Positions 1 to 30,839 of a stretch of DNA of 64,000 nucleotides are shown piece by piece. Made by a program: the position numbers and the translations under genes. The number at the start of each line of letters is the position of its first letter. Position 1 is the first letter of the stretch. This stretch comes from Amoebophrya sp. A120 (Eukaryota > Protista > Dinoflagellata), in NCBI GenBank assembly GCA_905178155.1, contig CAJINV010000009.1:2643373-2707372 (forward strand), read 5' to 3'. Under the pieces are notes generated by a model, which was not told the DNA's origin, made no database searches, and worked only from the letters and a program-made list of their open reading frames with translations.

Positions 1-252
1 ATATGTGTGGGTCTGGAAGCATGCGAACTTGTGATGCGCATTTCACACCACAGATAAATCTCTCATGCATAGGCAGCAAAAGGCGCCCGCTTCCTGTCAC
101 CAAAATGGGGGATTTGTCATACGGATTAAGCAGTGCGGAAGCTTCTCGAAATCTGTGATGCTAGGGCTTCCATGACAGACATTTTGTGTCATGCAAAAAC
201 AGCATGACAAAAATCTGCACTCTTCCAGACCCAGACACTTTTGCATTTAATA
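1..252. mobile_element. Introner family A (left end outside window)
   Basis: GGGTCTGGAA ... TTCCAGACCCAGACACTTTTGCATTTAATA TIR. Confidence 0.85.
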
Positions 253-3200
253 CTGTTTTCGTGGGACTGGTCGGGTTGATGCTGGAACACCGTTGTTCGC
301 CGCGCTTGCCGCAGCAAAAGCACCACGCTGATGCGTAGTTCCAGTCGCCGCACCACCGGGAACATATCGACCGGAGGCGGCGCCACCAGTGCTCGAATGT
401 AAAGACGCCGTGGGGGAAGTTTGCCCCTGAAGATTTGGGTCTCCAACACCCCCAGCTGCACGATGTTGATCCCTAGAAGTTGTTGTAGTTGTCCCTTGAG
501 GATGACCTCCTCCCTTTGCAGCAGTAGAACTCACCTGGATATTGTGCCACGTTCGCATCCACCGAACCGGAATCTTCGCAGTCTGTCTTGTAATCTTCGA
601 AGATTTCGTACTGTAGCCGATTCTGTATATCGTTTGTGGTTTGCCCTTCTCAAATTCTTCCTCCTCCTCATCGCTCCTCAGCACGGTCGTGCTGCCAATC
701 GTGCCTTCCGTGCCCGTCGTCGCTGACCGGAGACGGTTCTCGGTTAGGGGAGGGTGGGTCGGAGGAACTATTGTTCCAGAAGATCGTACACCTCCTGCGG
801 CGGACGAGTCTTGCTTGTGCTGTTCCTGGTGATCGAAAGCTTCATCATCTTCCGCAGTAAAATGAAAAATCGCTTCATCCTCATCATACACCTTCGGCAC
901 AGAAATCGGCAACGAATACCGACTTTCCTCTTCCCTCAAAGCCGGATTCGACGCGGCGAGGATTGACGGTTTCTTCTTCGTATGCAGTGCAAAAGTATCG
1001 CGCTCGTACTACTTAACTGCACTAATGCATTAGATATTCCGCATCGCAAATCTAATCTGTAACGCTGAGCCAAGTTGCATTGCACGTTTATACTAGTACG
1101 ATACTTTTGCAATTCATACTTCGGCGCATTTGCGTACAAATAGTGCTCGACTTGCTTCTTCCACGAATCAAACTTCCGGATCAACCGCTTCCTCCTTTTG
1201 TACTCTTGAACGGCCGCGGGAATCGACTTCGTCTGGGGGTAGTTGCTGTGGAGAGAGTAGGCGTCGTCGACGAGTTTAGTAGAATTTTGATGCGTCTTGA
1301 TGTTCTGGTGGCCTTCTTGCTCTTGAAATTTATTGGTATTTTTACCACCCCCGTCAGCTCCACCTGATGTTGTTGACACAGACGCTGCGAACGGCCACTC
1401 CCCCACGGTTAACTTCTTTTTCACTTTTCGCTGCTCCAGCTTGTCTTTTTCGTTTATCGGGACAAGGACAAAAACAATCGACCGGAGCACCGAGCGGAGT
1501 CGATACCAGGGAAAATTCTGCTCGGTGGCTTTCTTACTGGCAAGGGACAAGCTGGAGGCAACAGCACGCGACGTAGCACCCTCTCCAAGTAGGTCGCCGT
1601 CACTGCCGACGAAATTCTTTTCATACAAAAACGCCGGCGTCGCTGCTGGCATATGGGGTTCTCAAACGTTCCATTCTCAACTGTTGCATGAATTTGTCAT
1701 GCAAAAATACCATTATCATCCACAAGACCAAGCCGCCTCGCATGACAAATTTGCGAAGGGCTACTAGGCAGCACCTAAATCTGTTCGGGATTTGTGATGC
1801 TACAGGCGCAACCTTCCCCCTTTCACTTTTGCCATTCTTGCATCACAAATCCATGTAATCGGTGAGAATGTAACAGTTGAGAACGCCATATGGCAAAGGG
1901 TGTGCTTGGGACACGATTTGGTCCACTGTGTTCCACGGGATGACGTCCGGTTGGCAGAAAGTCAAATGCAAATGTGTCTGGGTCTGGAAAGTTGGAACTT
2001 GTAATGCTAGCTTTCCATACCTAGAAAATCTGTATTGCATAACCAACATCAAAAGTCGCACCCTCTTTTCTCATTACAAAAACGCAGTTTCTCATGCTGA
2101 CTGACTATGAGAATGCGTTCCGGAAAGTTGTCATACTGGGTCCCATTCGGAACTGTTTCGATCATCCACATTTTAGCATCAGAAGTTTCCAGACCCGGAC
2201 ATATTTGCATTTGATACAGAAAACGCGTTTCTGATTCGTCCACGATTCCCGTTATCAAGTGTAAAAGTGTCTGGGTCTGGAGAAGTGTAGACTTGTCATT
2301 TTCCATGACCCGTGAGGTCTGGAACGCGGGACTTAGCATGACAGACTCTGCGAGGTCTCTGCCATGCCTATCCTGCATGAGAAACTCCCTTCCAACTACT
2401 TGAACAAAAGCTTACAGCTTTTGGCACTCATGCAACACAGATTTTTGCATGCTTCAGATTTACCATGACAAGTTCCATCCTTCCAGACCCAGACATTTTT
2501 GCATTTGATACCCGTTTCACATAGTCAATTTTCGTCGTGAGACCGCGCAAATTGTCGTATTCGTAGCGGAAGTAGAAGTGTTCGGTGGAGGAATTGTGGG
2601 CGTAGTAAGGTTCTTTTTTGTAGCTGCTACCTCTGCCGCGAAGGGCGACGCCATTGGTGTTGCTGTTGCAGCTGCCTTGTGGAGCAGGAACGTCGATCAT
2701 TCCCCCTCCTTCTTGGGTTCTTGAGGTATTCATCCAATTGTTGATGTTGTCCTCCTGCTGATGAAACAAATGCGCACCGCTCTCGTCGCCGGTAAACACC
2801 GTCCCCGCGCTGTTTGGGCTACTGCTGCTGCCTCCACCGCCGTACTTGTTCTGGAAAACGGATTCTTGGTAAGACCCCGGGGTGGGCGTTGGCGAGGGAA
2901 GCATGCTATCCGCGCTTGGACTTGACGCGCCGGTAGTTCCTGATCCAGAGCTGACATTCACGAACTGGCTGGTAGGCTGCTGCTGCAAACCTGCTGGATC
3001 ATTATAGCGCGGATCATTGCCGTAATCTTGCCGCGTCCACGAGTGGGACATCGGATCTGCCGCGCCCTCTGGCTTTACACCACGCGGCGGTCGTACGATT
3101 TTATTTCCGTGTAGTTGTCCCTGAGGCCTCCGCGGAGCAAAATCTGTAGCAGTAGGATCAAGGAGTATTGTGAGGAAAAATCCCCCCTCCCCATATCGAA

Positions 3201-6200
3201 AGCGGAATGTGTGTTGCTGTATTTGAGTACGCAAATCATATCTGTCTTGCTGGAGAGGACTGCAGACCCATATCAAGCCTGAGCAGAGAGGCTTTGACTT
3301 AGGCGCATAGCATGAAAAGCGTCCGTGGTGTTGGCTCAACAGCATGACAAACCGCCTCCATAATGGGACGGAAGCTGCTGCCCTTGTCTTCTTGCAACAC
3401 AAACGTGATTTGTGACCTCAAATCAGCAACACAAATTTTCGAAAACCTACCTTTTCAATATGGGGTGGGGGGATTTTTCCTTTTGATAAGTAGACCAGGT
3501 TCTTCCGAGATGGCGCTCGCCTTGCTACCCCGCTTGTTGTTAACGGTAGAATTGACGCCGGCAACCAGGTCCTCACCGCCGGTTGTACCACCGCCAATGC
3601 CGATTTTGCTACCCCTCTGACTGCTCGAATGGTGGTCATTTATTTTGCTCTCATTGTACATGTACGCGCGTTTCTGCAACACTCGCAAGATCGACCTACG
3701 GAGAACGTATTCGTATCCTGTGCAAAAGTATCGTATTCGTATACATGCATTACAAATTTCCTCAGCATGAGAAATAAAATTTGTAATGCTGATTTACCTT
3801 AAGGCAAAGATTTGTATATGCATGAATGCAATACGAGTACGATACTTTTGCAGTTCATAATTCGTAGCTGACCACGATGTCGTCGACGTGCTGTTTTTGC
3901 TCTATGGCGTTCTCAACTGTTCCATTCATTCCCAACTGTCACATGAATTTGTGATCCAAGAATGGCAAAAGTGCTAGGGGGAATCTTGCGCGTCCTGCAT
4001 GACAAATTTGGCACCGATTGTCAGCCTGTTTGATGGCCCTCTAAGAATTTGTCATGCGAAGCAGCTTCATAGTGTCGATTTTGAAGGCAATTTTGCATTA
4101 CAAATCATGTAACAGAAACAGTCGAGGATGTAACGTTTGAGAACGCCTTATGCTCCTTCGCCAACTTCGGACTTCTGTCCGTGTCCGACGCAGACGCGGA
4201 GAACCGCATTGTGTGCTGCGCTATCAAGTGCAAACATGTCTAGGTCTGGAAGAGTCCAAGGTAAAGGTTTGTCATGCAAAGGCCAGCATGACTCCAAAGC
4301 CTGTCATGCACATTACCCGAAAGGACCACTTTTCTGTCATGCAGAAACGCGCTTTGTCATGCAGAATACACAACACGTAGGTACTCAGAAACTTGTCATG
4401 CTGCGCTGCCAATTAACGCGTCCTCATGGTTCTTGTCCTACCCGCATCACAAGTTTCCAGACGCAGACATATTTGCGATGCATATGCGCAGCTTTTGCGC
4501 TTTCGTTTTTCGAATCGGTTTTGCTTCTTTCGCCCGGGAGGTGATGTTGCGCGGCTGCAATCACGGATGTTGATTGCGGTAGCCGGAGGCTTGAGGTTGT
4601 GGCAGACGAAACTGCGGCCACTCCGGCGGTCTTCCGTAACCTGGTGAATCCATCAGGCGCTGCTGTTCCTGCAGCAGCTCCCCCATGATGCATTCTTGTC
4701 CGCGAAGATGAGACTTGGGGCTGGGTCGCAGCAGGAGCAGTTGCACCATGAGCAAGATGTTGCTGTGTACTAGCTGCTATCCCACTGTTGCTGTTTCCGT
4801 TCTGACTGCCCCCCAACATGCTCAAGCTTTGCGACTCCGCGATCATACTTCCCTCCGGTCTCGCGACCCTGTTCAGAGTGCTTGCATCGCCAGATGGAAC
4901 ACCTCCTGTCGTAGTTCCTGCTACCATACCTCCAACCGTACCTCCGTTAACACTCGTTAAAGTCGCGTTATTAGGGGTCAGATTCTGTGCACCAGCACCT
5001 CCGATGTCACTGGTTGAGTTGTTGCTGCTACGTCTGTCGGGTTCTAAAACTCCCGCCGAGTTTAGTGTCTCCTCGTTCATCTGCAGCAGCTATGAAGGCC
5101 TCAGGTTGGAAATCCTCACAGTGAAAATGATTTGTAATGCAAAAAAAACGACACCAGTTGAAGCACCATTTCTAGTCGGCGCATGACAAATTTCTTGGGC
5201 ACTCAAAGCGTGTCTGTCATGCTAGTGAGGCAAAGGGGTGCCCTTCTCTCGTGCTAATCTGCAGCCCAATTCTGGACCCGTAGAAGCACAATAGTCGGCC
5301 TCCATTGCGTTCTCTGCAATACAGTTTTTTTGGTGTAGCATTCCATGCACTACAAATTATTTCCACTTTGAGAATTTCCTTTCTGAGGCTTTCATAACAG
5401 CTCGTTTGACCTGGACAAAGAATCGTCCTCTTGATTCAACAGGTTTACAGCGTTCATATCAGCTCCGGAGGGACTCGAAATCGCAGAAGCAGACGCACCA
5501 CCTTGTGGTTGCTGCTGCAACCCACCAAAGCTTAAAGACGTCGCGGAGTGGTCTTTCGTCCTATCTTCCCCAAGACTACCGGAATGCGAGCTCCTATCAT
5601 CCTCATGTGCACCAGCGCCGGCTCTGGTTGAAGATATGTTTTGTTGCAGTCTCCGGAGTTGTTCCTGGTCTAAATTTCGTGTAACCAAATCCAAATTGAC
5701 ATTTAATTCCTCCTATGCAACGCAAAAGCATCATACTCGTATAAATGCATGACAAATTTCCTCAGCATGAGAAATGAAATTTGTCATGCGGATTTACCTT
5801 AAGAGAAAAATTTGTAATGCATGATTGCGATTACTACGAGTACGATACTTTTGCACAGGATACCTCCCCGCTGGTAGAACTGCTGGCGGAAGTACGAGCA
5901 GTGCTTCTCATCAAATACTGCGATATCCTGTGTAAAAACGTCCCCACCCCAGAGTTGTCGTGCAAGTGCGCGACGACAGGAACATTTGTAATGCGCGGCT
6001 CCATGTAAGGCATTTGCATTTCCAACCGTGTTTTGGAATTTGTAATGCTGTAAACAGGATGAGAAAGCGGCTCCCTCATGCAGATTCCCTTGCTAACCAG
6101 CACGAAGCTGCAGAGGCAAACTTGTCATGCGCAACTCCCAAAACTTGGAGATTTGTCTAGCAGATTTCCCATCTTGACTATGGGGTGGGGACGTTTTTAC

Positions 6201-9200
6201 TCAGGATATGCGAATTTTCATGCACATCAGGCGAAACTTGTTGCCCTTCGCCCTGCACCGCCCGACGAGAGGAGGAAGAAGCGCCTCCTGTGCCGCCGAC
6301 GCCCAGCTGGTGCAGCAGCCCTCTGGAGGTTTGCGCGTTCGTCGGGGTGACAGCCGCAAGATGACCAGTAGCGCCGCCGGACAGCGCATTTGCTCCCGTA
6401 GAAGTTCGCGGCGGATACGTGTTTGACGACGAATTCGTCTGCGATAGCACCAATTTCGGTGTCGTGCTTGATCCAGCTGTCGCTAAATTGGAATTCGCCC
6501 TTGCTGGATCCGACGATATTGTGTTCGAACCGGAAACAAGTCGGGGGGAAGAAGACAAATTATACGTGCCTGCCGTATGCTTGTTTTTCAAGCTCGAGGT
6601 CGCTAGCCTCGTCGCGCCACCCGTAGTTGAGCTTCGACTGTTCTGCAGTTGACCCACAGATGCAGAAGTGCCACTACTTGTCGAGACTTTCATTGTCGTG
6701 GTTTTTGACGACGTTTTCGTGGTTTTCGAAGTTGTGAAAACAACAGAGGTTGGGTGCTTCCTGTCGTGTTGCGTGATGAAAATCTGATCGGTGTTAGCGC
6801 TGTAGCTCAGTTATGCATTGCAAAAGTATCGTACTAGTACAAATCGCAATACAAATTTTTCCAGAAGGAAAAATGGAATTTGTAGTGCTGATTTCGCTAA
6901 GAAGGAAGATCTGTCATGCATGATTGCAATTAGTACGAGCACGATACTTCTGCACAGGATATCAGTTCCCAATTGTGGTCCCAGTTACAAACCACCAAAT
7001 TCGACTTCGTGATCGTAGTCGTCGTGGTGGTGGTAGTGGTTTGATGCTGGTTGATAGAGGTAAGTGCCGACTGGGACTGATGATGTCCCCCGAGAGGTGG
7101 ACCACCGCCGGCATGATCCTTGCCAGGTAGATGCAAAGTCGCACTCGAGCCGTGCTTCGGCAACATGCCACTTACCGCGGACGCTGAGCCTGTTCCCGCA
7201 GTGGTTGATGTCGCAGCAGCGGCCGCACCTGCTCCCGATGAAGGTCCTAGCATTTGCATCGCTGTTGGACTCGCAGTAGAACTACTACCTCCTGCACTGA
7301 TGATGTTGGCACCACTTGAGGACATATTAGCCGTCCCGGTTTTATTTCCACCACTCGTCACACCAGCCTATCCCACGAAAAAACTGTTTCACTGTGATGA
7401 TCTTGCAAGATCTGCATCACAAGTTTGTTACACATGACACAGAAAATTTGGCATGCGCGCTTCCAAAGGGAAAACACCGGTAAAGAGACGAGGAATTGCA
7501 GGTGTGGCAAGACAAATAGTTCTGTCTTCCATTCTATCCATCACAAGTTCACAGCGAAACAGTTTTTTCTTGCGATACAGCCCCAGCGTTGTACATGACT
7601 TGTTGGTCCGCAATGGCCGTCGATCGGAACAGTTGCATCCCACAGACCAACCTTGTTCCAACCAAATCTTCGAACAGCTGTCTACTTTTACAGTGCGACT
7701 GCACCACCGGCTGTTCCTTGCCCTCTTCGTCTAGAGTTCGGAATTGTTCTGCGTTCGCCGCGACGCAGGACCAATTGTCGGATTTTTTTCCCAGCATGGA
7801 ATCTCTAAACCCCTTCCCGCTTCTCGTACTTGAGCGGACGTTTAATTTTCGTTCTACGAAAATCGGCAGCAACGGTGGCGAATGTAACACCGACCACAAG
7901 GCTTGTAGGGACAACAGCTTGGCTTTCTTGAAGTAATTCGGATTCTCCTTCGTAATTTCAAAACGCGTCGCGAGCCAACGCTCGGATTCTTCCAAAGTCT
8001 CCGGGGAAATCGGCCCATTTTGTGCGATGAACTCCGCTAATGCCGCTTTGCGCTCCTTCTGGTATTCGAACTGTTGCTGGATTTGCTGCTCTTTGACATT
8101 GGAAAACTTCCTGTACTGTTGCACCGGTTTAGTAGCTGGTTTGGAAGTAGTGCGGCGAGCAGCGGTGGTAGAAGTCGGAAGTGGTACTGCACCAGGAGGT
8201 GCCCCGCCTGTTCGACTTCCTGTTGCAGCGCCGCTGGCTGATGATCCATGAGATAAAGTTTGCTTATCAATAGCAAATATGTCTGGGTCTGGAAGAATGG
8301 AACTTGTAATGCTAGTCCTGCATTCCTGTAAAATCTGTGTTGCATCATGACTAGCAAAAAGACGCCCTCTTTTGTCATATTACAAAAGCGCAGCTTCTCA
8401 TGCTGACTGCGCATGCGAAAGTGTGCGGCAAACTTGTCATGCTTGGCTGCATTCGGAAGTATTTCAGTCATCCACACTTCAACATCACAAGTTTCCAGAC
8501 CCAGACATATTTGCAATGCATATTGCTGATGTTCTTGCAAAGTTGGTGTGGATTGATGCGAAACTGCCCTCCGGTTATTCATGCCTGATTGCATTGCAGG
8601 AGGTAGAGGTAGAGACTCCTGCAGTGGAGATGATCTTCCTGCGCCAGCATCCTGTGCAGTACTAGTACAACTCGGGAAGCTGGTCTGAATCGCAGCAAGG
8701 GGTGTTTTCTTCCCCTTTTGACCAGCTTTCGCGGCGCCAGTCGTGCCACCAGCTGCACCTGGGGAAGTCGCAGGCTTGGTCGCTTGTTTATTTCCCGTCG
8801 CAACGAGGACTCCGCTGGACGTCTCAGTTCGTTTTATTGTCGCAACATCTTCTGAGGCGGCAGAGGAACTCAAATTGACCGTATCGCCGGTGGACAGTTC
8901 TCGGATTTCCAATTGTGTGCTAGATTCAGGACCAGACTGCTTCAAAAACCCACCGGCGGTGGAACTCGCCGCACTATTAAAAGTCGCCGGACTCGGGCTG
9001 GTTGTCGAGGGGATTCTGTTTGTCCCCCTGCTCCCACTCAACGAGTCCAAATTTCCTCGCGAGCTATTCAGCCCACTCCCCGAAGCTGCGGAAGACAGGC
9101 TGGGGTGCGCGGTTACGACCATGCCGCTAATCGCCGCGGTAAAAGGGGCGGAGGACGCGGAGGAATGCAGTTGTTGTCCAGCAAGCATCATGTTCTCATT

Positions 9201-12200
9201 TGAACCGCTGGGCGTGATTTGATTCGACGCTCCAGAGCCACTGCCCGTTTTTGTAACCGAAGGTTTGTTCTTCCCTATGTTCGTGTCCTGACTAGCACCT
9301 GTTCCGTATACTTCTCCCGGAAAGGGAAAAAACGCATCGGAAAACGCGCGGCTCTGCGCGGCAAAGGGCGAGGGAGCGAGCAAGTCCGCGGGCTGGTTAG
9401 TTGCGGACCGCTTCAACGCGGATCGTCTCGCCGTGGAGGAAGAATTTCCGCCGCTCGCGTGCAGTGGGGTCAAAGTTTGATTCGCGGTAAGCAAATCGAC
9501 TTGGTGATGCTGGTGATGGACACTTGCTCTCGTACTTCCAGAGGCTTGCCTTTGCAAGCCGCCGAGGGAATTAGAGGCCGATCCATTGTAGGGAAACGCC
9601 AGCCCGCTGTCACTCATATGAACCCGCAAACCTGTCGGGGTGCTGCGCGGGCCACGGGGCGGCAAACCGGAAGTAGTTGTAGTACTAGGGCCTGCAGAAG
9701 TTGTTCCTCCAGCACTACTCAGTGGCGGCTTGTTCTGCACAAGTTTTCCCCTCGTAGAAGCTGAAGCACCAAACGCCCCGCCAGTATTGTTGAGCGTCCC
9801 TTGTTTATCCCACGAAAAAACTGCTTCACTGTGATGATTTTGCAAGATCTGCATCACAAGTTTCTTACACATGAGACTAAAAACCTGTCATGTGCGTTTC
9901 CCAAGGGAAAACACGCTTGAAATTCCCATGCCTTGCAGGTGTAGCAAGACAAATACTTCTGTGTTCCATTTTCTGCATCACAAGTTCACAGTGAAACGGT
10001 TTTTTCTTGCGGTATTGTTCTGCCACGGTGGTGTTACCGGACAACTGCTTCAAGGCTTCCTTTGCTTCCTCCTGGTTCAAAGTGCTCTGATTAGACACGG
10101 GCGTCGTTCCAGTGGTTCTACTCACATATCCTGTGCAAAAGTATCGCACTCGTACTAATTGCAATCATGCATGACAAATCTTGTTTCTTAGCGAAATCAG
10201 CATTACAAATTCGATTTTTCCTTCTGGAGAAATTTGTATTGCGATTTATACTAGTACGATACTTTTGCAATGCATATCACAATATTACCGGCAATTTGGT
10301 TCGTTTTCGAGTTGTTCCGACTACTAGTGGTCATCTCCTTCGATGAAGACGCGGAAAAAGCTGTCAGAGTTGTGTTCGATTGATCCTGGTCTTGATCCGT
10401 CAAAGTTAAGTCCGCCTGGTCCAAGTCTGAAGTGACCCCGACGCTCAAAATCGACTCGGGTAAAATCGGCGGCCCGCGAGACGAGGATGGAGCCACGACT
10501 TCCACGTGCGCCGCGGGGATGTTCAGTGGCATTTGTGGCCTGCTGTTGATCGCAGGATCATCCAACGGCGTCGCCGGGGTTGTCCCGGCGGTGCCCTCGG
10601 TGGAGTAGCTTGTCGTAGGAGAAGGTTCCTGTGGCGGGAACTGCTGGTTAGGACGGACCCGCTGGTTGACAAGAACCGGTGAGCTTTGGTTGGACAGCTG
10701 GTCTACTCCTGTGCTTCCGGGTAAAAATGGTCTACTGGTTGCTCGTTCTTTCGACGACGCCCGGGAGGAGCTGTCGCCGCCAGCCTGGTGCTGCTCCACT
10801 ATGGCGTTCTCAAATGTTACATTCTCAACTGTTACATGAATTTGCAATGCAAGAACGGCAAAAGTGAAAGGGGAAAGATTGCGCCTTTTGCATCACAGAT
10901 TTGGCGCAGATTCAGCTGCTGTTTGGCCCTTCGGAGATTTGTCATGCGAAGCAGCTTAATCGTGGCGATCTTGCTTGTAAATTTGCATTACAAATCATGT
11001 AACAGTTGAGAATGTAATGTTTGAGAACGCCATATCCACTCTCACTTCTTTCGAAGAAGTTTGGGATTTGCTTGAGTCGCCCTCAGCCACGTGACCTCCC
11101 GGAGTGCTGCTGGTTTCCTCCGCAAGTTGTCCAGGAAGTCCTCCATCTCCCACCTCCACAATATCCTCTAAAATCGATTTTGTCAAGTCTGGGGAGGATT
11201 CGCTCCGGATCTGCTTCTGATGCCGTGCCTTAGCTTTCGGTACAGCTGCTGTGCCCGCAGAAACATCTGCAGCTCGTCCTGCAGAAGTTGTAGTTGCAAG
11301 GTCGTGCCGACCGGAAGTTCTCTGTACTTCACCAGTCATCGCAAGACCTACCTCAGCACTTCCAAGAACTCTTTGTTCCCCTCCGCTTTTCATCTTCTCG
11401 TTCTCCGTCGTGGTCACATACTGCTTCCCGAACTCAAATACGTCCATCTGCCCGCCGACGTAGATGCCTGCGTTGGTCTCAAACTGGTAATCATCCGTGG
11501 GCTCCACCCTGGTCGTCGTCGGTCGCCACTTCACATCGTGAATCCCCAAATCGTGTACGTTCACCATGTCCTGAAGCTTCACATTCATTTGACTCGCTTG
11601 GGATGAAGCTGCTGCCAGGTTTGCTTGAGGCGTAGTTCCAACCACAGGGTAGGGAAAGCTGATTGCGGAAAGTGCCGCTGCAATCGGCGCGGGTTTCATC
11701 CGAGTTTGCTGCTCGACGAGAGTCCGGTATTGGAAATGGTCTCTTGGTGACGTAGTGTGTTGCGCGTTCCAGTTGTCTAACATCTGCATGCGCATCATGC
11801 TCTCCGCTGAACTGAATCCATCGCCGGCTAAGGTACTACTGCTGGCGTCACCGTTTGTTCCGGTGCCAAAAACGGTCGCGTTCAATTTCCTCTGCGATTC
11901 CAGGTAATTATTCACCTTCGCAATCGCGTTCGCCCCGAAAAACGCCTCGCGGAAGTGGTTTGCGGTTTCGAGGTCTTCGGTATTTAAAATGTTGTCGGGT
12001 TGGATCGACTTGTAGAGGTTTTCGTTGGAGAGATAGTACGCGGACAATGGATCTGGTAGCGCAGGAGCTTCTCCATCTGTACTGCTTGTTTTCTCAGCGG
12101 CCGCGGCCCCACCACCAGGTACAAAAAGCGCAGTCAAGCTTCTTTTCACGACAGAAGCCGCGGTGGGGATCTGCGACAAGCCGGCAATTGAGGACATTGG

Positions 12201-15200
12201 GGAAGAGATTGTCAACGAAACATCAGTTGCAGAAGACGAAGCTGCTGCTCCGGCGCGGCCATCTGGGGACATCAACGCGCTGTCCGACGATGACAGATTT
12301 TCATTTTGAAGATTATCCCCAGGAGACAGGGACGGCGTGCGCAATAAACTGGTGTTGTTGTAGCTGCCGGAGTACGTTTTCAGTATGTTCTCGGCATTGT
12401 CGCCCCGTGCGTCGTAAATTTGAACTTTTTGTTGGTTTTTCTCCTGCGGCGGTCCTCCTCCCCTGCTGGGGGGTGAGAAAGCGAACGAAGATGGTGGCGA
12501 ACCAGGGGCACCGTGTCGGTCCGCATGGAAATCTCCGCCGTCGACATTAAGCGGCGAGGACACCGTGTGTGGGGGGAAGGGAAGCTCTTGCAAGTTCCCA
12601 GATTTCGTCTTTTCCAACGGGATTTTCTGTTCGTCGGGAATTTTGATCGGGTCCATGACCTGAATCTTGTACGCCTCGCCATCAAACTCCTCTTCCTTCA
12701 ACGAAAAGTGGACTGACTCTTTCGACCCTTTGCGGATTTGATTGTCCTTCGACCCTTTTTTCGTCTTTGATGCAAAAGTAGAAGAATTTCTACTACCGCT
12801 TGTTCCAACAAGCGGGGGCACGCGGTAGGGGTAGTCTGTTGGTGAAATCTCGTCGTCCGCCGAGTAGCCGAAGTTCGTTCCCGCCGCTGGTCTCAGCGTC
12901 TGATCATCATCAGCAATCTCCTCCTCCTCTTCCCCATCTACTTCGTTTATCGTTTCCCAGGCACTTGGTACGTCAGGGTTTTCTGCACAATATTTTCTCA
13001 GTTCCTTGTAAATCCGCTTCTCCTCTTCGTATTTCTCCAACAACCTCGGGTCGACCACCGGAAACATTTTCAATAATTCCGCCTTCCGCTCCTTCTCCAT
13101 CTCGTTAAAGAGCGCGTCCAACGGTCTCAAGCTCGACACGTTTTCGGAGAAAGATTTCGCTTCGGGCATTTCCAATTCTGGAAAATACACTGTCGCGAAG
13201 AAGTTCGCGTCGCATTCCTCGTACTTCTGCTGAAAGCGGCAATCCTCCAGAATCTTCGGCTGCAGGTCGAGTAATTCGTGCAATTTCGTTTCAAGAAGGT
13301 CTTGCTCGTCGAAGTCACTTGCGTTGTCCGCCTGCAGCAGAAACTCCTCCACTTCGGGGATCCCTGCCAAGTGGTGGCTGCTTGCACCAGTTGCCCCAGC
13401 GCCAGCATACGCATAGTTGTTATGCATTGCAAAAGTACCGTATTATAGTGGAAATAGCATTACAAATTTTTCCAGAAGCAAAAATGAAATTTCTAATGCT
13501 GAATTCGCTAGAAAGCCAGATCTGTCATGCTGCATGACTGCAATTCATACGAGTACGATAATTTTGCAGTGGATAGTTGTGCGGCGCCACACCAATCCCG
13601 ACGTTCGTTGGTACTACGTGAAGAAGTTGCTCCACCGAGTGCTCCGCGGACAAAGTTTCTCCCCCAGAAGCGGATCCTAGCGTCGGCGCCCCGACTATCC
13701 AGGAAAAAACACCCATCCCCATCCAGTTTGTCATGCAAAACATGCATAAGCTCCTTTGTTTGTCATGCAAAAAATGGATGGGGATGGGTGCTTTTTCCTG
13801 GATACCGACTAGAGACAAAGCGTTCGTCACGATCGCCTGTCCACCCCCGACGGAGGACGATTGGCTCGCGTTTAGGAGGTCTTGCAGTGAGGAACTGGAT
13901 TCCCCAGCCGTGTTGGCGGAATTTATCGTCAGCATGTTCGGGTTGCTGCCCATTGTCCCGAGCAAAGACGCGGAGCTATCGTGGTTGTGTTTCGGCATTT
14001 TCGAGGATTGGATCACGCGAATCTGCGTCAGGGCGGAGGTTCTGTTCATTCCTTGGGCAGCGGCGGCGGAAGATTTGTTGTTCATGCCCCAGAGGAAATT
14101 GCCGTCGGATGGGGAGGAAGGAATCATCCCCGTTGCGGTGGATTTCTCGTCCTTACTTATTTCCCCGGAATTGTCCTTATTTTCTCCGCCAATCAGCGCT
14201 GGCTGTGAACTGGAGAAATTTACGGATTTGGAGACCACTGTTGAGGTCGCGGAAGTTGTCTGTTGATGATGGGCTACTTCTGTTGATGTGACAACAGTAG
14301 TCCCTGCTCCTGCTACGACTGCTCCGCCCGTCGAACTCGCGTTCACCGATCGCGGACTGGCGGACAAGGCGCCAAATTTACTGCTGGAAGCGGATCTTGA
14401 TTGGTGTGAGGCGGAGGGGGTAGAGGTACCGCCGCCGGAAAATTCGAGATGAGTTTGCTGCTGCGGGTGCTGTCGTTGACCTGCTGCTGTTATTCCCAAT
14501 TCGGGGTCCGATCCCGAAACCGGGATGCTGAGTTGCAGCTGGTCTACTCCTGCACCAGATGTTCTACTTTCGGTGCCTTTTACAACAACCGATTGTCTGT
14601 CATCCAGAACTGCTGGAATCAAAACCGGCTTCTTCTCCTCCTTTTTCTTTTTCTTCGGAACCAGAACTAGGGGCACTCGATGCAGCGGGCGGTCCCGGAA
14701 GCAGATCAAGAAACATCGCGCTCCCATCTTCGAGAACCTGCGTTGGGTTAACAGGAATAAATCCTTCTTCGTGTAAACCACCCCATGGTTCGCGGACAAA
14801 ACGAAAATACCCTGCCCCGTGATCGTCAACGATCTATCCAAAGCGTGGTGCTCGAACGCGTCTAAAGCGAGGTTCAAAGCCTCTAGCAATGGCAGATTCT
14901 TCGTGGCCCCGGCCATCCTTGTTTCCTCCAAATCGGGGAGAATTGCGTCTTTGTCCCGGTTTGACTTGTCGAGGGATTCTTGCTCTTTCTGTTTGACTAA
15001 ATTCCGGTAGTAGTTGTTCCTCGCCCGGAGGTTTCCACTGCTGAAGCCGCCGTCGGAACTTGCAGAACTTTGTTCTCCGAAGGAAGAGGAAGGGAATAGG
15101 GTGTTGCTGAACTGGTTCTGATATTGATGATGTTGATGTTGTCCACCTCCAGAACCACCTGCTCTCGACGTTGTACTAGAAACACGGTTAATATTCAAAT

Positions 15201-18200
15201 TCGTCGCTGACACCGGCCCACTGCTGGGCGAAGCGAAGTCGTTTCCGAAGCTCGTCTGACTCCCACGCCCACTGAAATTCGCGAAGTGCCCGGTCAAACT
15301 CCCGTCCGAAGCGTTGGGGGAGGAATCGGGCAAGTTTCCGAAATCCGGACTGGAAAGCATCAAACCTCCAGAGCCGGTACCAGTTTGATGTTCCTGCTGC
15401 TCGGTTGTAGTCATGCGGCCCGGGATAGAAATTTTCAACGGGTCAACGACGTTTGGGCTGGACGAGAACGACTCGTGATCTTTGGACAGAATCCCCTTTG
15501 GAAACAGCGGTCGCACCTGCTGGGCATGTGTACTGTCCGCTCTGCCGGTCCTAAATCCTATCTGCACATTCGCGGGCGACTGCACACCGTCCTCCGAGAG
15601 CAGGTCATCGAGATCGCCGATACCGGGAATTATAGTAGCACCACCTGCACCACCAGTCGTAAGAACATCCCGACTCTGATTTACCGGACTAGAGGCCAGC
15701 AGACGGAGGTTGGCACGGAGACCTGTGCCTGATGTTCCACCTCCTCCTATCCGGCTGGTTGCATAATTCCCGGCACTTCTCCCAGCTGCTTGGTTCCTGC
15801 CCGGTCTATTCCCTTCGCCGCGCGGATGCTGATTTATGTCATCAACACCATCACCTGTTTCCTGGATGCGCATTTGCATCTCGACGAACTTCTCCTGCGT
15901 CTCCACGTGTTGCCGCATCATTTCCATCCTTTTCGCCTGAGCTTGTTGCTCGTGGGAGAAGGAGCTGAGCATTTTAGTGCCATGTTGAGGTCCACCAGCT
16001 CGCTTCGAGTTCGACCCGCTCGATCTCGAAAAATCCGTCAGCTCCTGCTGCTGGATAATGTTTGCAAAAGCGTTCGCAACTACGCCAGACCGCTGGCTCG
16101 TGCTCCGGTTCCCGGAAAGGGAATATCAAATGTAAAAGTGTCTGGGTCTGGAAGAATGCAACTCGTCATGCCAAATCTGAAGCATGCAAAAATCTGTATG
16201 GCATGACTGCCAAAAGTCGTCCAGTTTTGACCAAGTCGGGAGGGAGTTTCTCATGCAGGATAGGCATGAGAGAGATCGCACAGAATCTGTCATGCTAGGT
16301 CATGCATTCCAGACCTCATGGGTCACGAAAAAGCTGCATGACAAATCGCGCATTCTTCCAGACCCAGACATTTTTACATTTGATAGGGAAGATATGCCAA
16401 CCAAACCGCCGATAGACGTGGGCGTTTGCTCGGTCTTCCTGCTCGATTCCGTCTTCGTCTGGCTTGGCATGGAAATTTCCGACTGCTCTTCCGTCGGGAA
16501 AAGAAGGGAATTGACGTTCAAATTCAAATCGATTTTAGGCGCGGATAACGGCCGAGTTAGTCGTGTAGTAGTAGTTGATCTCATCTTTTTAATGTTCGAT
16601 GGCGCGACGTCGAGAGACACAACTCGCTGTGCCGGCGGTGCAAGAGCTGCGATGTTGTTGGCCGGCGCTTCTCGTTCAATATTTTTCCCGGCATCGAACT
16701 TCGCGTCTGGTAACGGCGACGGGGTAAACGGCTCGAAATCGGATTGCTCTTTTTGAAACTTTCTGACGTCCTGCCAGGCAATTGGGTCCTGGGATTGATG
16801 CACGAGAGCGGGGGACATTGTAGCTATTTGCGGCTCCGCGTCTGGCTCCTCTTCCTGCCCGTGCTCTTGTTGGCCTAGCACTTGCTCTCCGGGTAGAATG
16901 AACCCTTGCTGCTGCCGCTGTGTAGTTAAAGTTATTGTTTTCTTGCTTCTTGCATCAGAAATAAAACGTTCCTCTTTATTGTAGTAGCTACTTCTAATCA
17001 ACGCCTCCCGCACTGCCGGATCTGTGTGATCGAACGGAGCGTCGTGACGGGCGATGCCGATATGTTCTTGCGATGGACCTCCGACACCACCACCTTCCTC
17101 GTCCAAATTGTTGAAGGGCCGGATAATGTTATCCCAAGAAAAAACTGTTTCACTGTGATGGTTTTATTGCAAGATCTGCATCACAAGTTTGCTACACATG
17201 ACACAGAAAAGTTGTCATGCGCGTTTTCCAAGGGAAAACACGCCTAAAAATCCGCTGTGTTCTTGCAGGTGTAGCAAGACAAACACCTTGGTGCTTCGTT
17301 CTCTGCATCACAGGTTCACAGTGAAGCAGTTTTTTCTTGCGATAAATGTAGTCTTTGTCCGAATCAAAATCCTCCATGTTCGTCCTTTTCCGTATCCAGG
17401 AAAAAACGCCCATCCCCATCCAATTTGTCATGCACAGCATGCATGAAGTCCACTATTTGCCATGCAAAAAATGGATGGGGATGGGTGTTTTTTCCTGGAT
17501 ATCCCGCTGCCTCGTACTACTGTTTGCGTTTCCCTCCGCAGCTGCTCCCGCCTGCTGCGGCCCCTTGCGGTTGTCGTACTGCCCGATCTTGTTCCACAAA
17601 CCTTGGATAAAGTCGTTTGGATGGGTTATCAAGGATACCGCTCCAGACCAAACTACGTCGTACCAATCCAAAGGGATCTCTGGGCCGGATTTTACCGATT
17701 TAGAATTTGAGGGTCTTGAACTCGATTTGTCGTGGGGAGGATCTTCGGGGGCCTCGTCCCCTACAGAGGCCGACGCATCGAAAGTTCTTTTCCTTTCAGG
17801 CAACATGGGAGCTGTTTGGCTCGCGCCGACCCCATAGTTTTTCGTAGTCGTGGTCCCTGTAGAGGTTGTGAAGTCGTGCTGTGTGGAGGTCATAATTTGC
17901 AGCCGAGAGGAGGACTGTTCCTCTCCTTTAGCACCTCGTGAAGACCGATTCTGATCTTCCAAATTCGCTGTGTAATTCAACGCCTGTTGAATCATCGATC
18001 CAGACGGGACGCCACCGGGCAAATCGTCACAATCATCTGCTTCTGCCCCCTTGTTCGTGTTTACATTTACAACAGCTTCCGGTACTGCAGACGAGGATGA
18101 AAAGTGTTTCTCCTCGGTTAACGGCCCTTGATCCGAATTCTGGCTGTTCAGCGAGCTTCTACTGGTGTTACTGGACTCGTGCGGGGAGAAGGAGAAGGCT

Positions 18201-21200
18201 GGGTCCGATGCGCTTCTGTGCTGCACGACTTGCACAACGTTCTCCGTGCTGGAATTCTGGGAGGAGGAATTTGTTTTCGGCGTATTCTTCTGCTGGACCT
18301 GGGTCAACATCGTGTTAGACTTGTTAGAACTTGCTTGTTTCTTTCTGCTTGCAATTGCTGCCGTCCCGGAGGTGCCTTGTTGGCTACCGCCACGACCACC
18401 TCCGCCGGCTCCTGGTGCCTCGTCTGCAAATGAAGATTCTCCTCCAGCAACATCTTGTGCTGCTGTTGTAACACCAGAAGCCACAATGTCCTCCTCCTGA
18501 TCTTTCTTTGCCTCCTTCCATTTGCACCTCCGTCCGAACAGAATCAGCACCAGCTCGTGCTCACACCCCGCTTGCTGCTTATGCAATACAAATTTCTCGT
18601 ACACGACGTACAAAATGCATCACACATAATTTCGCCATACTCAGAATGTAACACTTGTCATGCTGATTAGCATCGCAGGCAAGGTCTGTTATGCAGACTC
18701 CATATTTTTTGTATACTGTATGAGAGCGTTTGAGCAATTAATTTTTCCGCAATTCAAAAAATCGCGTATTTAAGATTAAGGTATCTGTCAATCCCCACGG
18801 TATGATCGTTTTTGCAGTCGCCGTTGCGGAGTGGAAAAGCTGGTGTCTCCGGTGCCGGTTTTGGGTGAGTTATGCAATGAGATAAATAGGGAGATTCCAA
18901 CTTGAGCTAGCTAATTTAGGTATCTTGGTATGTATGTTTTTGATGTAGATATTGATGGCGTTAGGATACGCATTTAGATTAGACCAAGCGACGACCCTTT
19001 GAAGACCGGCGATTTGACGTCGCGGGGCCCCGTGCACGGGGCCCCGCGACGTCTTGGCCACCGTCTTACCTGGCTACCTAGGAAGCAACCTCCAGAAGGC
19101 AGCTGAATAGCGGCCGCAGTTCTTGATTTGTCATGCATAAATACTTCTATCTTAATTAGCTAGCTCAAGTTGGAATCTCCCGTATTTGACAACCATACCT
19201 TACAGCCGGATCACCAAACAACCGGATCATCAGGCTTCGACATCACCAGCGTGGCGGCGGCGATAAAAGAAACAAAATGGAATGATTTTATTACAAAAAT
19301 CTATTTTTTGAATTGCGGAAAAATTAATTGCTCAAACGCTCTCATATACTGTACGTCGTGCACAACGGGAAATTTACTGTGGATACTTCTGCCGTTCGAT
19401 GCACTCTTTAAGAAACCGCAGCATGTGGTGCAGGATCATCTCACCAGAGGAACTGTATTCGTAGATCTCTTTCGAGACTTCGATGAACATGTAGATCTCC
19501 GCGGCGGTCGACCGGAAGGAGATTTCTGTCTTCTCCGTCACAAGACCGGTTAGCAACTTCGGCGGTTTGGGCTTCGGCTTCGCTGCTATTCCATCTTGAT
19601 GCGACTCGGTCGGTGATGGTTGAGCGGACACGATATTGGACGAGGTCCCAGCGGGAGATGAAGCTGCCACCACGGCGGCGGCTCCCCCGACGACCGGGGA
19701 TGGCATCGGTGGCGTTCCACCGCCAGCTGAAGTGGTTGATCCCTGCCCGGATTTTGACTTCGAAGCAAGGGCTGCTCTGATTCCAGTCTGAAGATCCTTC
19801 GTGTTAGAAGTACTACCATCATTTTGCGCAGAATTATCTTCCACGTCCATGATCGCCACACTTGTCGCCAGCGCGTGCTCCACCAAGTAATCGGACTCTG
19901 GCGGGTTAAATCCCTGGTAGAAAACCGGTGCGATACCGGATTGCTGGAGATCTAGTAGCGATTTCTGGTAGTACCAAATATCGCGCTTGCTCATCTGCCG
20001 TCTCGCAGTTAGCGTGATTTCCAAATTCTCCAGAGTGTACTTCTTCTCCTCCTCCAATGGGATCAAAATCAGTTCCAACGAGTTTTCTGACAGTTGTAAA
20101 GTGGAGAGATTTAGATTCAGGAAGTTCTGTTGCTGTTGCTGCATAAACTCAATGTCCTTCGCATTCGGGTTGGCAACATTCGTTTGCGAAAACATCTATG
20201 CATTGCAAATATGCCTGGGTCTGGAATAAACTTGTGATGCTAATTTATGAATTGTGGGGTCACTATAATAGGCAGCCACGCATGAGAAGTTTCTGGGCCC
20301 CCTTGTGTTCTTTCGCTTTCCGCATGACAAACTACATTTTTGCATGACACGCAAGAGGCTCTTTTCGTGCTCACGCATTACAGCTTCACTAGTGATGAGA
20401 GACACGCATGACAAATAACTTGCATTCTTCCAGAACCAGACACATTTGCATTGGATAACATCCCTCCCGGCGCGCCCGACGGGTTCACGACAATCGTGTT
20501 TGCGCCGGGGATATCAAATGCAAATATGTCTGGGTCTGGAAAGTTGCAACTTGTGATGCTGCCTTTGGATTCTACACAGAATCTGTTTCGCGTGACCAGC
20601 AAAAGAGGTCCGCTTTTTGTTACACGGAGAGGGCATTTCTCATGCAGTACAGGCATCACAAAGCCCTCAACAAATCTGTGATGCTAGGGCATGCATCAGA
20701 GACATCAGAGGTCATGCTAAATATGCATTACAAGCGCTGTTTTTTTTCCAGACCCAGACATTTTTGCATTTAATAGGGGAGTTGGTTGACAATCCCCTGC
20801 GGCCCGATCGCGATTGAGCTGTACCTGGCGTTTAGACTGTATCAAGTGCAAAAGTGTCTGGGTCTGGAAGATTCTGAGACTTGTCACGCACGTTTTGCAT
20901 GAGCCTTGATGTCTGTGACGCATGCCCTAGCATCACAGATTTTTTGAGGGCTTCTTGATGCCTATTCCGCATGACAAATGCCCTCTCGTCCGCGGAGCAA
21001 AAAACGCGTTCCCTTTGCTGCTCATGCAATACAGATTTTTTTGGAATCCAAATGCAGCATCACAAGTTGCCTTCTTCCAGACCCAGACACTTTTGCATTT
21101 GATAGACTGTCGTAGCTGGCATTGTTTTTGTTGTCCGGATTCCCGAGGTCCTGGATCCGGTTCTTTTTCATGACCTGCTCGAAATTCCGATACAAAAATT

Positions 21201-24200
21201 TCCAATCAAAAGCCGCCTGGGCGAGTTTGGTGTCGATGGAAATCGCCGCGTTGTTGTTGGACTTAGGGAAGGAGGTGATGAGATTGAAGTTCGCGTAGGA
21301 ATAGGGGTCGGTGGAAATCAAGACGGTGGATGGTTGGTTTTGTTGTGATGTAGAAGTCAAAGAGGTCGAAGCGGCTCCAGAGCCCAGGCCCCCGCTAGTG
21401 CTGGAAGAAGTTGCACCACCGGTAGTTGTACTACCAAAAGAACTGCTCGGCGGCCCGCCTCCAGGACCACCATATCCCACGAAAAAAGTGTTACAGTTAC
21501 ACATTTGTAGCCAATTCAGCAACTGCATGAGAGAGAAAACTTGTAATGCAGAAATCCTACGGGAAAACAGCTATGAAACGAGGCTCCTATGCATATCCGG
21601 CATGACAGAGCTTGTCTGTCTTGCTTGGCCTGCAACACAATGCGTAACTGTAACACTTTTTTCTCACGATACACCACCGTACAAATTCACTGCCGAGTCC
21701 ACCATCATTTCTGGTTCTGCGCGGATATGGAAGCGTCAGGATTGAAATCGTCAAAGTTGAAATAATTTCTCATGCATAAAATGCAAGGCATGAAGTGCCT
21801 GTCTTGCCGGGATGGCAAGTGAGGCCGACTGTCAGCCTGTTTAGGGTTTGAAATAGAGCTGCTAAAGTAGCATGGCAAAAGCCTTCTTCTATCCCTAAAC
21901 AGCATGACAAACCGGATTTAGACGGTGCCGAAATTTGTCATGCGCCGCTTGGAAATTGGGCTTCCAACTGGTATCGATTTTCTGCATTACAACTTACTTC
22001 AATTTTGACAAAGATTTCAAACCTGACACTTCCATAGCGGAACAGCAAATAGTTGTCCCGGTCTGCTTCAAACTGCAAGCGGTACAACCGTATGCATTGC
22101 AAAAGTATCGTAAGTACAAATTGCATTACAAATCTTATCAGAAAGAAAAATGGACTTTGTAATGCTAATTCAGGTAAAAAGGTAGGTTTGTCATGCAAGA
22201 TTGCAATTAGTACGAGTACGATACTTTTGCACAGGATAAACCGACCGACTTTCAACGATCGGATTCTGGTTTTGTCAAAAAGCAGGGACTGGCGGTACCC
22301 GGTTGGTAGGGTAGAGTCTTTAGAAACGCTCGGACCTCCAGAGGCTGCAGAAGAAAGCAGAGCGCCGGCGCTGCTAGTGGTAGCCGAGGACGAAGCAACA
22401 TTCGCGGCAGCGGAAGCCGTATCAAATGTAAAAGTGTCTGGGTCTGGAAGAATGCAAGATTTGTGACGCAGCTTTTCCATGACCCATGAGGTCTGGAATG
22501 CGAGACCCAGCGTGACAGATTTTTTGAGGTCTCTATCATGCCTTTCCTGCATGAGAAACTCCCTCTCAACTTGGTCAAAAGCGGACAGCTTTTGGTACTC
22601 ACGCAACACATCATCATCATGTAGTGGACACCCGCTCCCAGCGCCACAGGTCAAGGATCCCCTCCCCGGGGGGTGGGCGAGGAAGCACTTTCGGCGACCT
22701 CAACATACAAAAGCCGAGCGCTACCACGGCAAGTCGCCCCAATACAAGTGCCAACCAGTCGGGAGCTACCCACCACACCTGATCAGCACAACCCGGCCAG
22801 CTAGCCGAGCGCGACAGCCCAACATACAGAACGATCCAGGACCCGACCCATAATTTTACGCCATAAGTTTTTGCTCTCACGGAAGAGACGACGTACCCCT
22901 TTGGGCTAAGGGGCGAGACTCTCCCTTAAGCCGCAACCCCACCCGGACAGGGGAGGCTGGACCATTTGTGCCTTACCTGCGGCACGGACGAAAAAGGCAA
23001 GGGCCGCGGACCACAGACGTCAAACCATTGGCCAGTTGTTTGTCACTGCTGACTGGCAACCCACCTGGGGCACAGCGACAACTTAAAGGTTTAGTTTGTG
23101 CGTGGCAGTCTTAGTGCAACTACTTGACTTATTCTGCAACAGAAGCAAAGGGGGAGAGGGGGGGCGGGGGTCTTACGCCAGAGTCGCGACGGGACTTACC
23201 TGGACGTAGGGTGCCTGGCAATCCCCTACTAACCCCATAACCCTTGCGCGCCCGTAACTTCGTCTTCGTCAGCACCGCGGCCAGGAATTTCGACACACCA
23301 TTTCCAGCATGGCGGCCGCCGTTTGTACGAAGTCCCACACGCAACTCCGTGGCCAGAAAGTCCGATACGAATCTTTCACGCCATGTCCATGGCGGCGGTA
23401 AGACTGCGCGTCGTGCCTGGTTAGCTCGTGATAGTCGTGCTGGAGTTGCTCGTGGTAGTCGTGCTGGTGTGCTGCAGTTGCTCGTGGTAGTCGTGCTGGT
23501 GTGCTGCAGTTGCTCGTGGTAGTCGTGCTGGTGTGCTGCAGTTGCTCGCGGTAGTCGTGCTGGTTAGCGTGACAGTCGAGGACGAAGTTGGAAATTGTGG
23601 CTCTCGAAACCGTCGAAAGTGTTTCAGAAAACGTGTAAATCTCGACCGGTCGGGCGCGCTTCCTTTTGGTTTGGCGTCGTAGTACTCGATGCCGCTGCAC
23701 TCGCAAAAGTTGCCTTCAGTCCTAGTCTAGCATGACAAGTTGGACACTGCAAGTTAGCGAAGTTTGTACATGTACAGGAAATTTACCTTGCATAAGGGGC
23801 ACTCCGTGTCTATGATCGCGATAGGGAGGAGCGTCGCGCAGAAGAGTTTCACGAAGCCCGTTCACTTCATGACCTCCAAATCGTAGCCGTAGGATTGAAA
23901 TTCTTGCAGCAGCGACTGTGAATTTCGGGCGCGGAAGGGCGTTTGCTTGTTAAACCGCCAGGTCCACACCGAGAAAATCCAGAGATTGGCGATCGCTTGC
24001 GCCAGGACGACTAGGATGGCGCCCAACGCACGGCTGTCTTCCTTCGGAATCTGCATCTTGGGCAAAACGCCGTCCTCTTCCCCGATCAGGAAGAGAGGGA
24101 GGACGCAGGCCATGTTGAGGAATGAATGTTGGAGCTAAAAAGGATAGAAGTGCACAACTTCAAGAACTTCTAGGTTGTAGACCGAATAGCGCCGGTGTCT

Positions 24201-26300: not shown

Positions 26301-26513
26301 TCACCTGCATTGGTCACCTGCATTGGTCATATGCATTGATCATATGCATTGGTCATATGCATTGGTCATATGCATTGGTCATATGCATTGGTCATATGCA
26401 TTGGTCATATGCATTGGTCATATGCATTGGTCATATGCATTGGTCATATGCATTGGTCATATGCATTGGTCATATGCATTGGTCATATGCATTGGTCATA
26501 TGCATCGATCATA
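26301..26513. repeat. 13-bp minisatellite (TGCATTGGTCATA)n, about 16 copies, intergenic
   Basis: Direct reading. Confidence 0.95.
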
Positions 26514-26948
26514 TCAAAATTTCAGTGTCTGTATCTCCTCATCTTCAACAGCGAGGACATCGTGCGTCGTCGTCGTCGTCGTCCCGTGGTGCACGACAGC
26601 ACAAATCATGAACCAGTTGTCTTCTTTTTCTCGTCATAGTCGAATTCGTATCTTCTGAAAAATTGATTACGTACACTGCTAGCAGTGAACAACACGTGGA
26701 GCTGATGAATCTTTGCACGTCTACTTCCCCCGAAAAAGAAGCATCTGGCCGAGGAGCAGTTTCCTCATTATCAAAATCTAAATCAAACAGTAACAGAATA
26801 TAATGGTGACGATGATTTTTATACGCATCGTAACTAGTATGAATTATCAGCCAGCATTTGCATCTGTTTCTGCTCTTCCTCTTGTGGAAGGAACAAAGGG
26901 CAAGTAGGTAGAGGAAAAGCAAAGCCTTTCTTGGTGCACTAAGTGGGT

Positions 26949-30485: not shown

Positions 30486-30839
30486 TCACTGTTCGGGCAA
30501 CATCCCTTGCTGTCCGAGCATCACTTGCCGTTCCGGTGGTCCTCGCACAGCGCGCTTCCAGTCAATGTAAGCTTTTCCGGTAAGGCACCCTAGCTCGAAA
30601 GTGGCGAGCCCGTGCAGGCATGCAGATCCAGGTGAGAGGCCGTGGACGTGCTGTGCTTCGTACTGTTGAGACGCTTTGTGCATGGTATAGCATGCACAAG
30701 AACCGCAGCAAACCGCGGCGCTGGCCGCGGCCCCGCAGCACGCCCTCCCCGAATTCTCCGCGAATTCCTCCGCGTATTTTTTCGGGGTCCAATGTGCTGC
30801 AGCTGCACGGCAGCTGCAGCTGCCGTGCAGCTGCAGCAA
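30486..30839 (-). CDS. Small Cys-rich hypothetical protein (start uncertain)
   Basis: GC-rich ORF (CCGAAASAAVCCGSCACY) in AT-richer flanks; no ATG identified. Confidence 0.35.
   Translation of the reverse strand: MLQLHGSCSCRAAAAHWTPKKYAEEFAENSGRACCGAAASAAVCCGSCACYTMHKASQQYEAQHVHGLSPGSACLHGLATFELGCLTGKAYIDWKRAVRGPPERQVMLGQQGMLPEQ
30795..30838. repeat. Perfect 44-bp palindrome
   Basis: TGCTGCAGCTGCACGGCAGCTGCAGCTGCCGTGCAGCTGCAGCA equals its reverse complement. Confidence 0.9.

Follow-up and report, generated by a model that had tools for sequence, protein, structure and literature searches.

The stretch analysed here comprises 64,000 nucleotides (nt) of Amoebophrya sp. A120 (contig CAJINV010000009.1, positions 2,643,373 to 2,707,372; hereafter the window) and is crowded with elements built like miniature inverted-repeat transposable elements (MITEs), whose TAT...ATA inverted repeats are flanked on both sides by a target duplication of 5 bp. 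These are the introner elements already published for this organism (PMC7789003). The host frames that we found all lie on the minus strand, the host of the element at 24881 being uncertain, and one of them, similar to IML1/DEPDC5, contains four family A copies from which a sequence-only reading had concluded that excision is independent of orientation. Our analysis indicates that the elements are likely cut from RNA either way thanks to their mirror-copy ends, with a cut that is polar relative to the transcript. The host frame and the four copies are as follows:

250..24535, minus strand: host frame of 5063 codons after removal of 30 elements, IML1/DEPDC5 (GATOR1)-like
2253..2510: family A, orientation +1, 258 nt; perfect 5-bp duplication; retention shifts the frame
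16124..16385: family A, orientation -1, 262 nt; retention adds 2 stops; joined to both flanking exons in contigs of run X1
20512..20775: family A, orientation -1, 264 nt; retention shifts the frame
20840..21104: family A, orientation +1, 265 nt; retention adds 4 stops

The coordinates given for these copies (2253-2510, 16124-16385, 20512-20775 and 20840-21104) proved exact, and each copy runs from TAT to ATA within a perfect 5-bp direct repeat. The opposite orientations claimed for them were equally clear when the interiors were compared with 50 nt trimmed at each end and z calculated against 500 doublet shuffles: 2253 matches the reverse complement of 16124 in 133 of 166 columns (z 20.4, versus 0.8 on the same strand), and 20512 matches that of 20840 in 134 of 170 (z 19.4, versus 3.4). 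Removing each element together with one duplication copy opens a frame of 4704 codons over 26 elements and of 5063 codons over 30, compared with 866 amino acids (aa) for the longest unspliced open reading frame (ORF) in the window and with 2000 trials of random removal lengths, which averaged 848 codons and never exceeded 2940. Both orientations must go for the ORF to stay open, as had been claimed: keeping 2253 or 20512 causes a frameshift and keeping 16124 or 20840 brings in two or four in-frame stops. Retention of any single element gives stops in 28 of the 30 cases, the four copies included, and the other two elements (13696 and 22091) could stay without a stop. Judged from the frame, all four copies would be excised.

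The frame alone permits removal of the element length -1, +2 or +5. With the bare length, or +1, +3, +4 or +6, the longest ORF reached only 865-953, and length+2 and length-1, compatible with the frame, are contradicted by the RNA joints described below. Matches to the IML1 domain (PF12257) fall in exons 19392-20195 and 13810-16122, and the host protein aligns with protein P0001 in seven collinear blocks, one of which crosses the element at 18580 without gaps. No public model of the host protein was present among proteins of 1351-3855 aa, a range that a model of about 5000 aa would exceed. The raw RNA runs X3-X5 gave no reads on exons of this gene, only partial element matches from other loci, and are uninformative in this respect.

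To describe the elements as a group, the window was scanned for end-paired, duplication-flanked sequences, which yielded 69 candidates; two shuffled controls yielded 2 and 4 candidates at the lowest score kept and none at scores of at least 27. Five candidates were dropped (two belonging to a tandem repeat, two that were long pairs of low score and one shifted duplicate), and 7 elements that the scan had overlooked were entered manually, for a final set of 71. Incomplete elements at 1-252 and 63325-63443 are excluded from the counts, base-composition, arm-pairing and strand-energy counts refer to 69 elements (without 31887 and 54419), and all orientation and family counts refer to the 64-kb window. 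The duplication is perfect in 53 of the 71 elements, with all four bases common at each position and no bias toward G or AG. The 5' triplet is TAT in 67 elements, TAC in 2, TAA in 1 and TAG in 1, and the 3' triplet is ATA in 68, with ACT, ACA and ATG once each. Nine families with at least two copies (2-22 copies each) cover 65 elements and share only TAT-C/G and an A-run, with A at arm positions 11-13 in 53-65 of 69 elements, their arm sequences otherwise differing. Whichever way an element lies, the 5' arm presented to the transcript is the same (TA-T-C/G ... AAAA), and so is the 3' arm (TTTT ... ATA).

The elements thus have the terminal inverted repeats (TIRs), fixed-length duplication, short length, multiple copies and two orientations of MITEs; like introners, they form repeated families that are absent from mature RNA (11 copies skipped in probable RNA). 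PMC7789003 reports finding no cognate transposase or autonomous element in A120, and a later paper lists TIR-type and integrase-like introners in this genome (PMC12130899). An Rfam scan of the whole 64 kb gave 0 matches at the gathering score, so no known structured RNA or self-splicing intron family was detected there.

Both orientations were seen in 7 of the 9 families (A 16:6, B 5:9, C 6:0, D 3:3, E 3:2, F 1:4, G 1:1, H 2:1, I 2:0). The per-family count of orientation that had been proposed as a check was run here within the window, and it agrees with two-way insertion with the qualification that the orientations are not fully even, the bias across families being mild (heterogeneity p 0.043). 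Family A is split 4:5 within the IML1/DEPDC5-like gene. Family C shows one orientation in 6 of 6 copies (7369, 9806, 17130, 21473, 39582 and 55166; binomial p 0.031, uncorrected), which could be a genuine orientation limit. Further copies of families A and B in the same gene are:

1960..2216: family A, orientation -1 (weaker call); transcript 3' end ACT, not ATA
4222..4484: family A, orientation -1
8265..8522: family A, orientation -1
20197..20457: family A, orientation +1
6812..6961: family B, orientation -1; closest relative 10127-10276, in the same gene and in opposite orientation
10127..10276: family B, orientation +1

Removal itself was followed in contigs of X6 and X7 (one sample), treated as probable RNA, over 26700-44200, and in public gene models. 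The contigs skip 11 of the 17 elements in this stretch at exactly length+5; among the joints listed (15 of 31), 5 corresponded to no element at length+5 and, taken as matches between repeats, were left out of account. Two public proteins named Amoebophrya sp. A120, P0002 and P0122, are 100% identical to window exons and drop elements at net length+5 in 9/9 and 7/7 cases (16/16 together), in both orientations for families A (+1 in five copies, -1 at 53971), B and E. The A120 gene models were built from transcript alignments, ab initio tools having failed on such introns (PMC7789003), and public models and the X6/X7 contigs may share data. In the phosphodiesterase gene the alignment to orthologues is gap-free across four junctions. 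Run X1 behaves as genomic DNA, with an even depth of 40-46 and no differences, and its contigs span from element to exon to next element, including both sides of 16124. The elements that bear on removal and on the position of the cut are:

28455..28696: family F; 3 of 5 duplication letters differ; upstream copy kept in probable RNA, k 3-5 (k is defined below)
37332..37593: family A, orientation +1; begins with TAG on the transcript; probable RNA skips it at length+5
37805..38132: family G; duplication mismatch sets the cut at k 4-5
39008..39273: family A, orientation +1; duplication mismatch sets the cut at k 4-5
39853..40003: family B, orientation +1; 3' end ACA, ends poorly paired; skipped in probable RNA, k 4-5
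53971..54240: family A, orientation -1; removed at length+5 in P0122
53137..53259, minus strand: ordinary GT-AG intron, sharing its transcription unit with non-canonical elements

What appears to be a single gene (56308-46737, with 16 elements in all) is divided between P0122 (partial) and P0002: both lie in the 509-codon frame 56308-53254, which the GT-AG intron 53259-53137 joins to the ion-transport/phosphodiesterase frame. A 22-nt stretch at 40506-40527, lying between two elements and bounded by their duplication copies, is kept in probable RNA as a micro-exon. In raw RNA reads of runs X3 and X5, ends of family A and H elements are joined to foreign sequence from loci outside the window, and some copies elsewhere are therefore retained or unspliced in RNA.

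Where the two copies of a duplication differ, the joint reveals which letters the exon keeps, and we call k the number of letters of the transcript-upstream copy that remain. Of that copy, 4 or 5 letters survive in the exon at the joints of 37805, 39008 and 39853 (k 4-5); the joint of 28455 also keeps the upstream copy (k 3-5), and P0002 at 50105 agrees with the same rule. The cut is polar relative to the transcript, the mRNA retaining the upstream duplication copy, and since 4-5 letters of it are kept, the first letters of the intron are N-TAT or TAT, and its end lies 4 or 5 nt past ATA. Changes at the ends are polar as well: the 5' TA is intact in 71/71 elements, all 4 changes lying at base 3, and at the 3' end the A at -3 is intact in 71/71. 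The nine commonest non-canonical border pairs of A120 all start N-T (PMC7789003, Table S4), which fits k 4. GY..AG borders are possible in any register for 6 of 69 elements, in 3 of 69 at k 4 and in none at k 5. The GT/GC donor and AG acceptor of canonical U2 introns are thus lacking, and canonical borders gained through a shifted register, which we considered, could fit only those 6.

Taken together, these results divide the claims of the sequence-only reading. Removal in both orientations is borne out by the frame and, for families A, B and E, by the public models, but the view that polar signals are unneeded is not, the cut being polar. The absence of GT-AG signals was supported, whereas a strict need for TAT and ATA ends was not, a TAG start (37332) and an ACA end (39853) both being skipped. 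The argument from two orientations to no polar signals fails: the first and last 30-35 nt of the four copies are near-identical, and because the arms are near copies two-way removal does not exclude polar signals. What it does imply is that the interior carries no required polar signal, and large inserts agree with a dispensable interior, the element at 48020 being removed whole in P0002 (net 1256 nt).

A hairpin is predicted in most elements, with a median of 29.7 arm pairs in 66. Among 69 elements, pairing is seen at arm positions 9-13 in 64-66 and at positions 4 and 7 in 39 and 35; position 4 is C or G, chosen independently on each arm (39 paired of 71). Persistence of the hairpin is by itself uninformative about a role in RNA, because transposition alone would keep the arms matched, and the strand tests gave null results: G-U and A-C mismatches number 47 versus 45 over 24 nt and 86 versus 71 over 35 nt (p 0.26), only 34 of 65 elements are more stable on the sense strand, and deviation rates of the 5' and 3' arms in the 71 elements do not differ past base 3. 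An internal CAT-N-A-C/G-A motif considered as a branch point occurs on both strands, in variable places and with no sense excess. A role for the predicted RNA hairpin is plausible, though these tests did not detect one.

We propose, with roughly even confidence for and against, that a modified or relaxed U2-type spliceosome removes the elements, their ends being paired through the arm duplex or an arm-binding protein that replaces U1/GT-AG recognition (related literature: PMC9860276, PMC12005148, PMC8469720). A transposase acting in trans would insert the element at any 5-mer and in either orientation, as the repeats and duplications suggest. Either orientation then exposes the same 5' and 3' arms around a variable interior that tolerates inserts of more than 1 kb, and removal of the element with exactly one duplication copy restores the pre-insertion message, as in the 11 cases in probable RNA and the 16 in models. 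Three joints, and a compatible fourth, show a stagger in the cut, which falls 0-1 nt ahead of TAT on one side and 4-5 nt beyond ATA on the other. In the last step, the arm duplex or arm-bound protein may bring the ends together in place of U1/GT-AG recognition, with N|TA in the part of a relaxed G|TA donor and distance from the 3' arm setting the acceptor. The spliceosomal step is suggested by analogy; A120 has retained almost every spliceosomal protein along with U2, U4, U5 and U6, U1 RNA being reported as not found (PMC7789003), and GT-AG and non-canonical introns coexist in one gene, which supports a spliceosomal reading.

Several observations weigh against this proposal. Strand-specific selection on an RNA hairpin was not detected in the strand tests, and weakly paired elements are still removed (39853 with 13.6 pairs, in RNA; 50105 with 6.0 and 54419 with 7.0, in models). 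Four branch-point-like motifs showed no sense excess (for example 12 sense versus 17 antisense in 71 elements), a test that the symmetric arms blunt. An AG acceptor is found at k 4 in 4 of 69 elements and at k 5 in 3 of 69, and the absence of an acceptor dinucleotide is difficult for the normal second step of splicing. The difference between the two ends, with 3' ends altered at -1/-2 in 3 elements, reached a post hoc Fisher p of 0.029 on 7 elements, one of them added by hand. X6 and X7 were taken as RNA on a tool's guess, backed by a depth that varies from gene to gene and by the empty bin 35460-36043, and the 15 joints listed show one orientation per family, so that two-way removal is not directly visible in them. 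Finally, k 4 fails to predict the A-N ending that 8 of the 9 commonest pairs have in Table S4 (PMC7789003); these pairs may be shaped by aligner choices within the repeat.

Other explanations have to be weighed against the same evidence. In what is the strongest form of the earlier view, a non-spliceosomal endonuclease and a ligase would read the base of the inverted-repeat hairpin and cut with a fixed stagger. The lack of both donor G and acceptor AG, the use of any 5-mer as target, the near-constant pairing of arm positions 9-13 and the U1 RNA not found in A120 (PMC7789003) would all suit such an enzyme, as would the precedent of euglenid introns, which likewise have staggered inverted repeats (+4..6 with -8..-6) and leave circles (PMC6221363). 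Yet neither a G-U excess nor greater sense-strand stability is present, pairing falls to 39 and 35 of 69 elements at positions 4 and 7, weakly paired copies are removed all the same, there is a hint that the two ends differ in sequence needs, and A120 has a near-complete spliceosome (PMC7789003); we consider this account unlikely, if worth keeping in view. A broader version, in which A120 would possess a second, spliceosome-independent machine for RNA excision that reads a symmetric transposon-end signal, cuts by ruler and removes one duplication copy whatever its sequence, appears doubtful; if it were true, insertion of these families would be silent at once in any exon, phase and orientation. 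Somewhat less probable than the endonuclease is polar recognition by sequence alone, with donor and acceptor signals copied in mirror image and the hairpin a by-product of transposition with no part in splicing. It would account for the same ends being shown in both orientations, for the null strand tests and for the independent C or G at position 4 of each arm, and two-way introners have been published (10.1101/2020.10.14.339549; PMC10228655); on the other hand, at least 9 families share only TAT-C/G and the A-run, which is little to define a pair of ends across up to 2 kb, and the 5' and 3' arms deviate equally beyond base 3.

Two further alternatives would dispense with RNA excision. If the elements were removed from DNA in some life stage, like the internal eliminated sequences of ciliates, RNA would never carry them; the DNA-transposon anatomy and symmetric ends would suit a DNA enzyme, and contigs drop rare forms, so that a minor excised pool is possible. 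The genomic X1 contigs nevertheless run from element to exon to element at an even depth and without differences, and the skipped forms occur in X6/X7, with their gene-wise uneven depth and empty intergenic bin, which makes this explanation very improbable. That the host genes are dead, MITE-riddled copies from which nothing is removed deserves virtually no credence: the three small runs without RNA reads on the IML1/DEPDC5-like gene are uninformative, and 5063 stop-free codons, exact skips in probable RNA and a gap-free orthologue alignment across four junctions speak against it.

The elements resemble the A120 introner elements as described in PMC7789003, where A120 has 29,850 repeated introns and the elements have inverted repeats of 8-20 nt that begin with TAT and reach an A-run seven bases later, hairpins, 3-5 nt direct repeats, a length of about 240 nt and non-canonical borders: here too there are a TAT start, about 7 variable bases, an A-run, short direct repeats, a hairpin and non-canonical borders. 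Beyond that description, the window shows a uniform 5-bp duplication, removal at length+5, a cut at k 4-5 and both orientations. Our literature search, in which subscription papers were thinly covered, found no paper on orientation or cut register of A120 elements; in the main text and supplement text of PMC7789003 the word 'strand' does not occur and the listed passages with 'orientation' concern genes, and Figures S19-S25 of that paper could bear on the matter. Two-way introners with GY/GA-AG-type sites are known from Polarella glacialis and Aureococcus anophagefferens (10.1101/2020.10.14.339549; PMC10228655). Those are likewise TIR transposons with target-site duplications (TSDs) that make introns whichever way they lie, one orientation being favoured, but they carry or recruit GY/GA and AG sites and need particular targets (10.1101/2020.10.14.339549), whereas the A120 elements carry or recruit no canonical site (6 of 69 could be GY..AG). 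Nonconventional introns of euglenids share the non-canonical borders, end-joining inverted repeats, TSD-like repeats and staggered ends, and a non-spliceosomal endonuclease and ligase are suspected there; they differ in their CAG/CTG motifs, Y|R junctions and release as circles (PMC6221363; PMC11282704). The introners of Fritillaria borealis are also MITE-derived and non-GT-AG and are reported to be removed by the U2 spliceosome (PMC11282704), with dominant AG-AC/AG-AT borders, unlike the A120 elements, which have no dominant pair. By analogy, they are a precedent for the spliceosomal proposal, not a test of it.

The mechanism by which A120 removes its tens of thousands of non-GT-AG introns is posed as open in PMC7789003. 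The window narrows it to one with signals in symmetric arms, a free target sequence and a staggered, transcript-polar cut. Two-way introners are not new, and two-way insertion is expected of a TIR transposon; what is added here is the uniform length+5 rule, the polar cut register, the orientation counts and an approach to mapping the register genome-wide, in which elements with mismatched duplications serve as natural rulers of the cut site and existing RNA sequencing could be used. Clean splicing from any site in either orientation would explain how these transposons filled coding sequence.

Two elements of the IML1/DEPDC5-like gene carry additional sequence:

18580..19385: element enclosing a second one, 18719-19346, each having TAT...ATA ends and a 5-bp duplication of its own; the outer element interrupts the conserved IML1 block
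22420..24439: family A, orientation +1, split by inserted sequence of about 1.7 kb; frame open once the whole is removed

A Pfam search of the 1.7-kb insert (about 22610-24360) gave no match over the cut-off. Its first 60 nt or so are common with a short insert (about 50735-50800) in the element 50682-51005, and it carries an ATG-repeat tail on the minus strand that is possibly, by its sequence, the end of a non-LTR (long terminal repeat) retroelement. Large secondary inserts also occur in the elements 48020-49270 (1251 nt overall) and 31887-32770 (884 nt overall). Other element-bearing minus-strand genes lie at 58647-59849 (Psf2-like, with a match of E 1e-4, below the cut-off), 31759-33853 (flavodoxin-like, also below the cut-off) and 36413-41920 (FkbM methyltransferase, 1152 codons). 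Between genes, a tandem array with a 13-nt unit occupies 26330-26500, and the stretches 44500-46000 and 56600-57950 are GC-rich (about 0.72), with long open frames on both strands.

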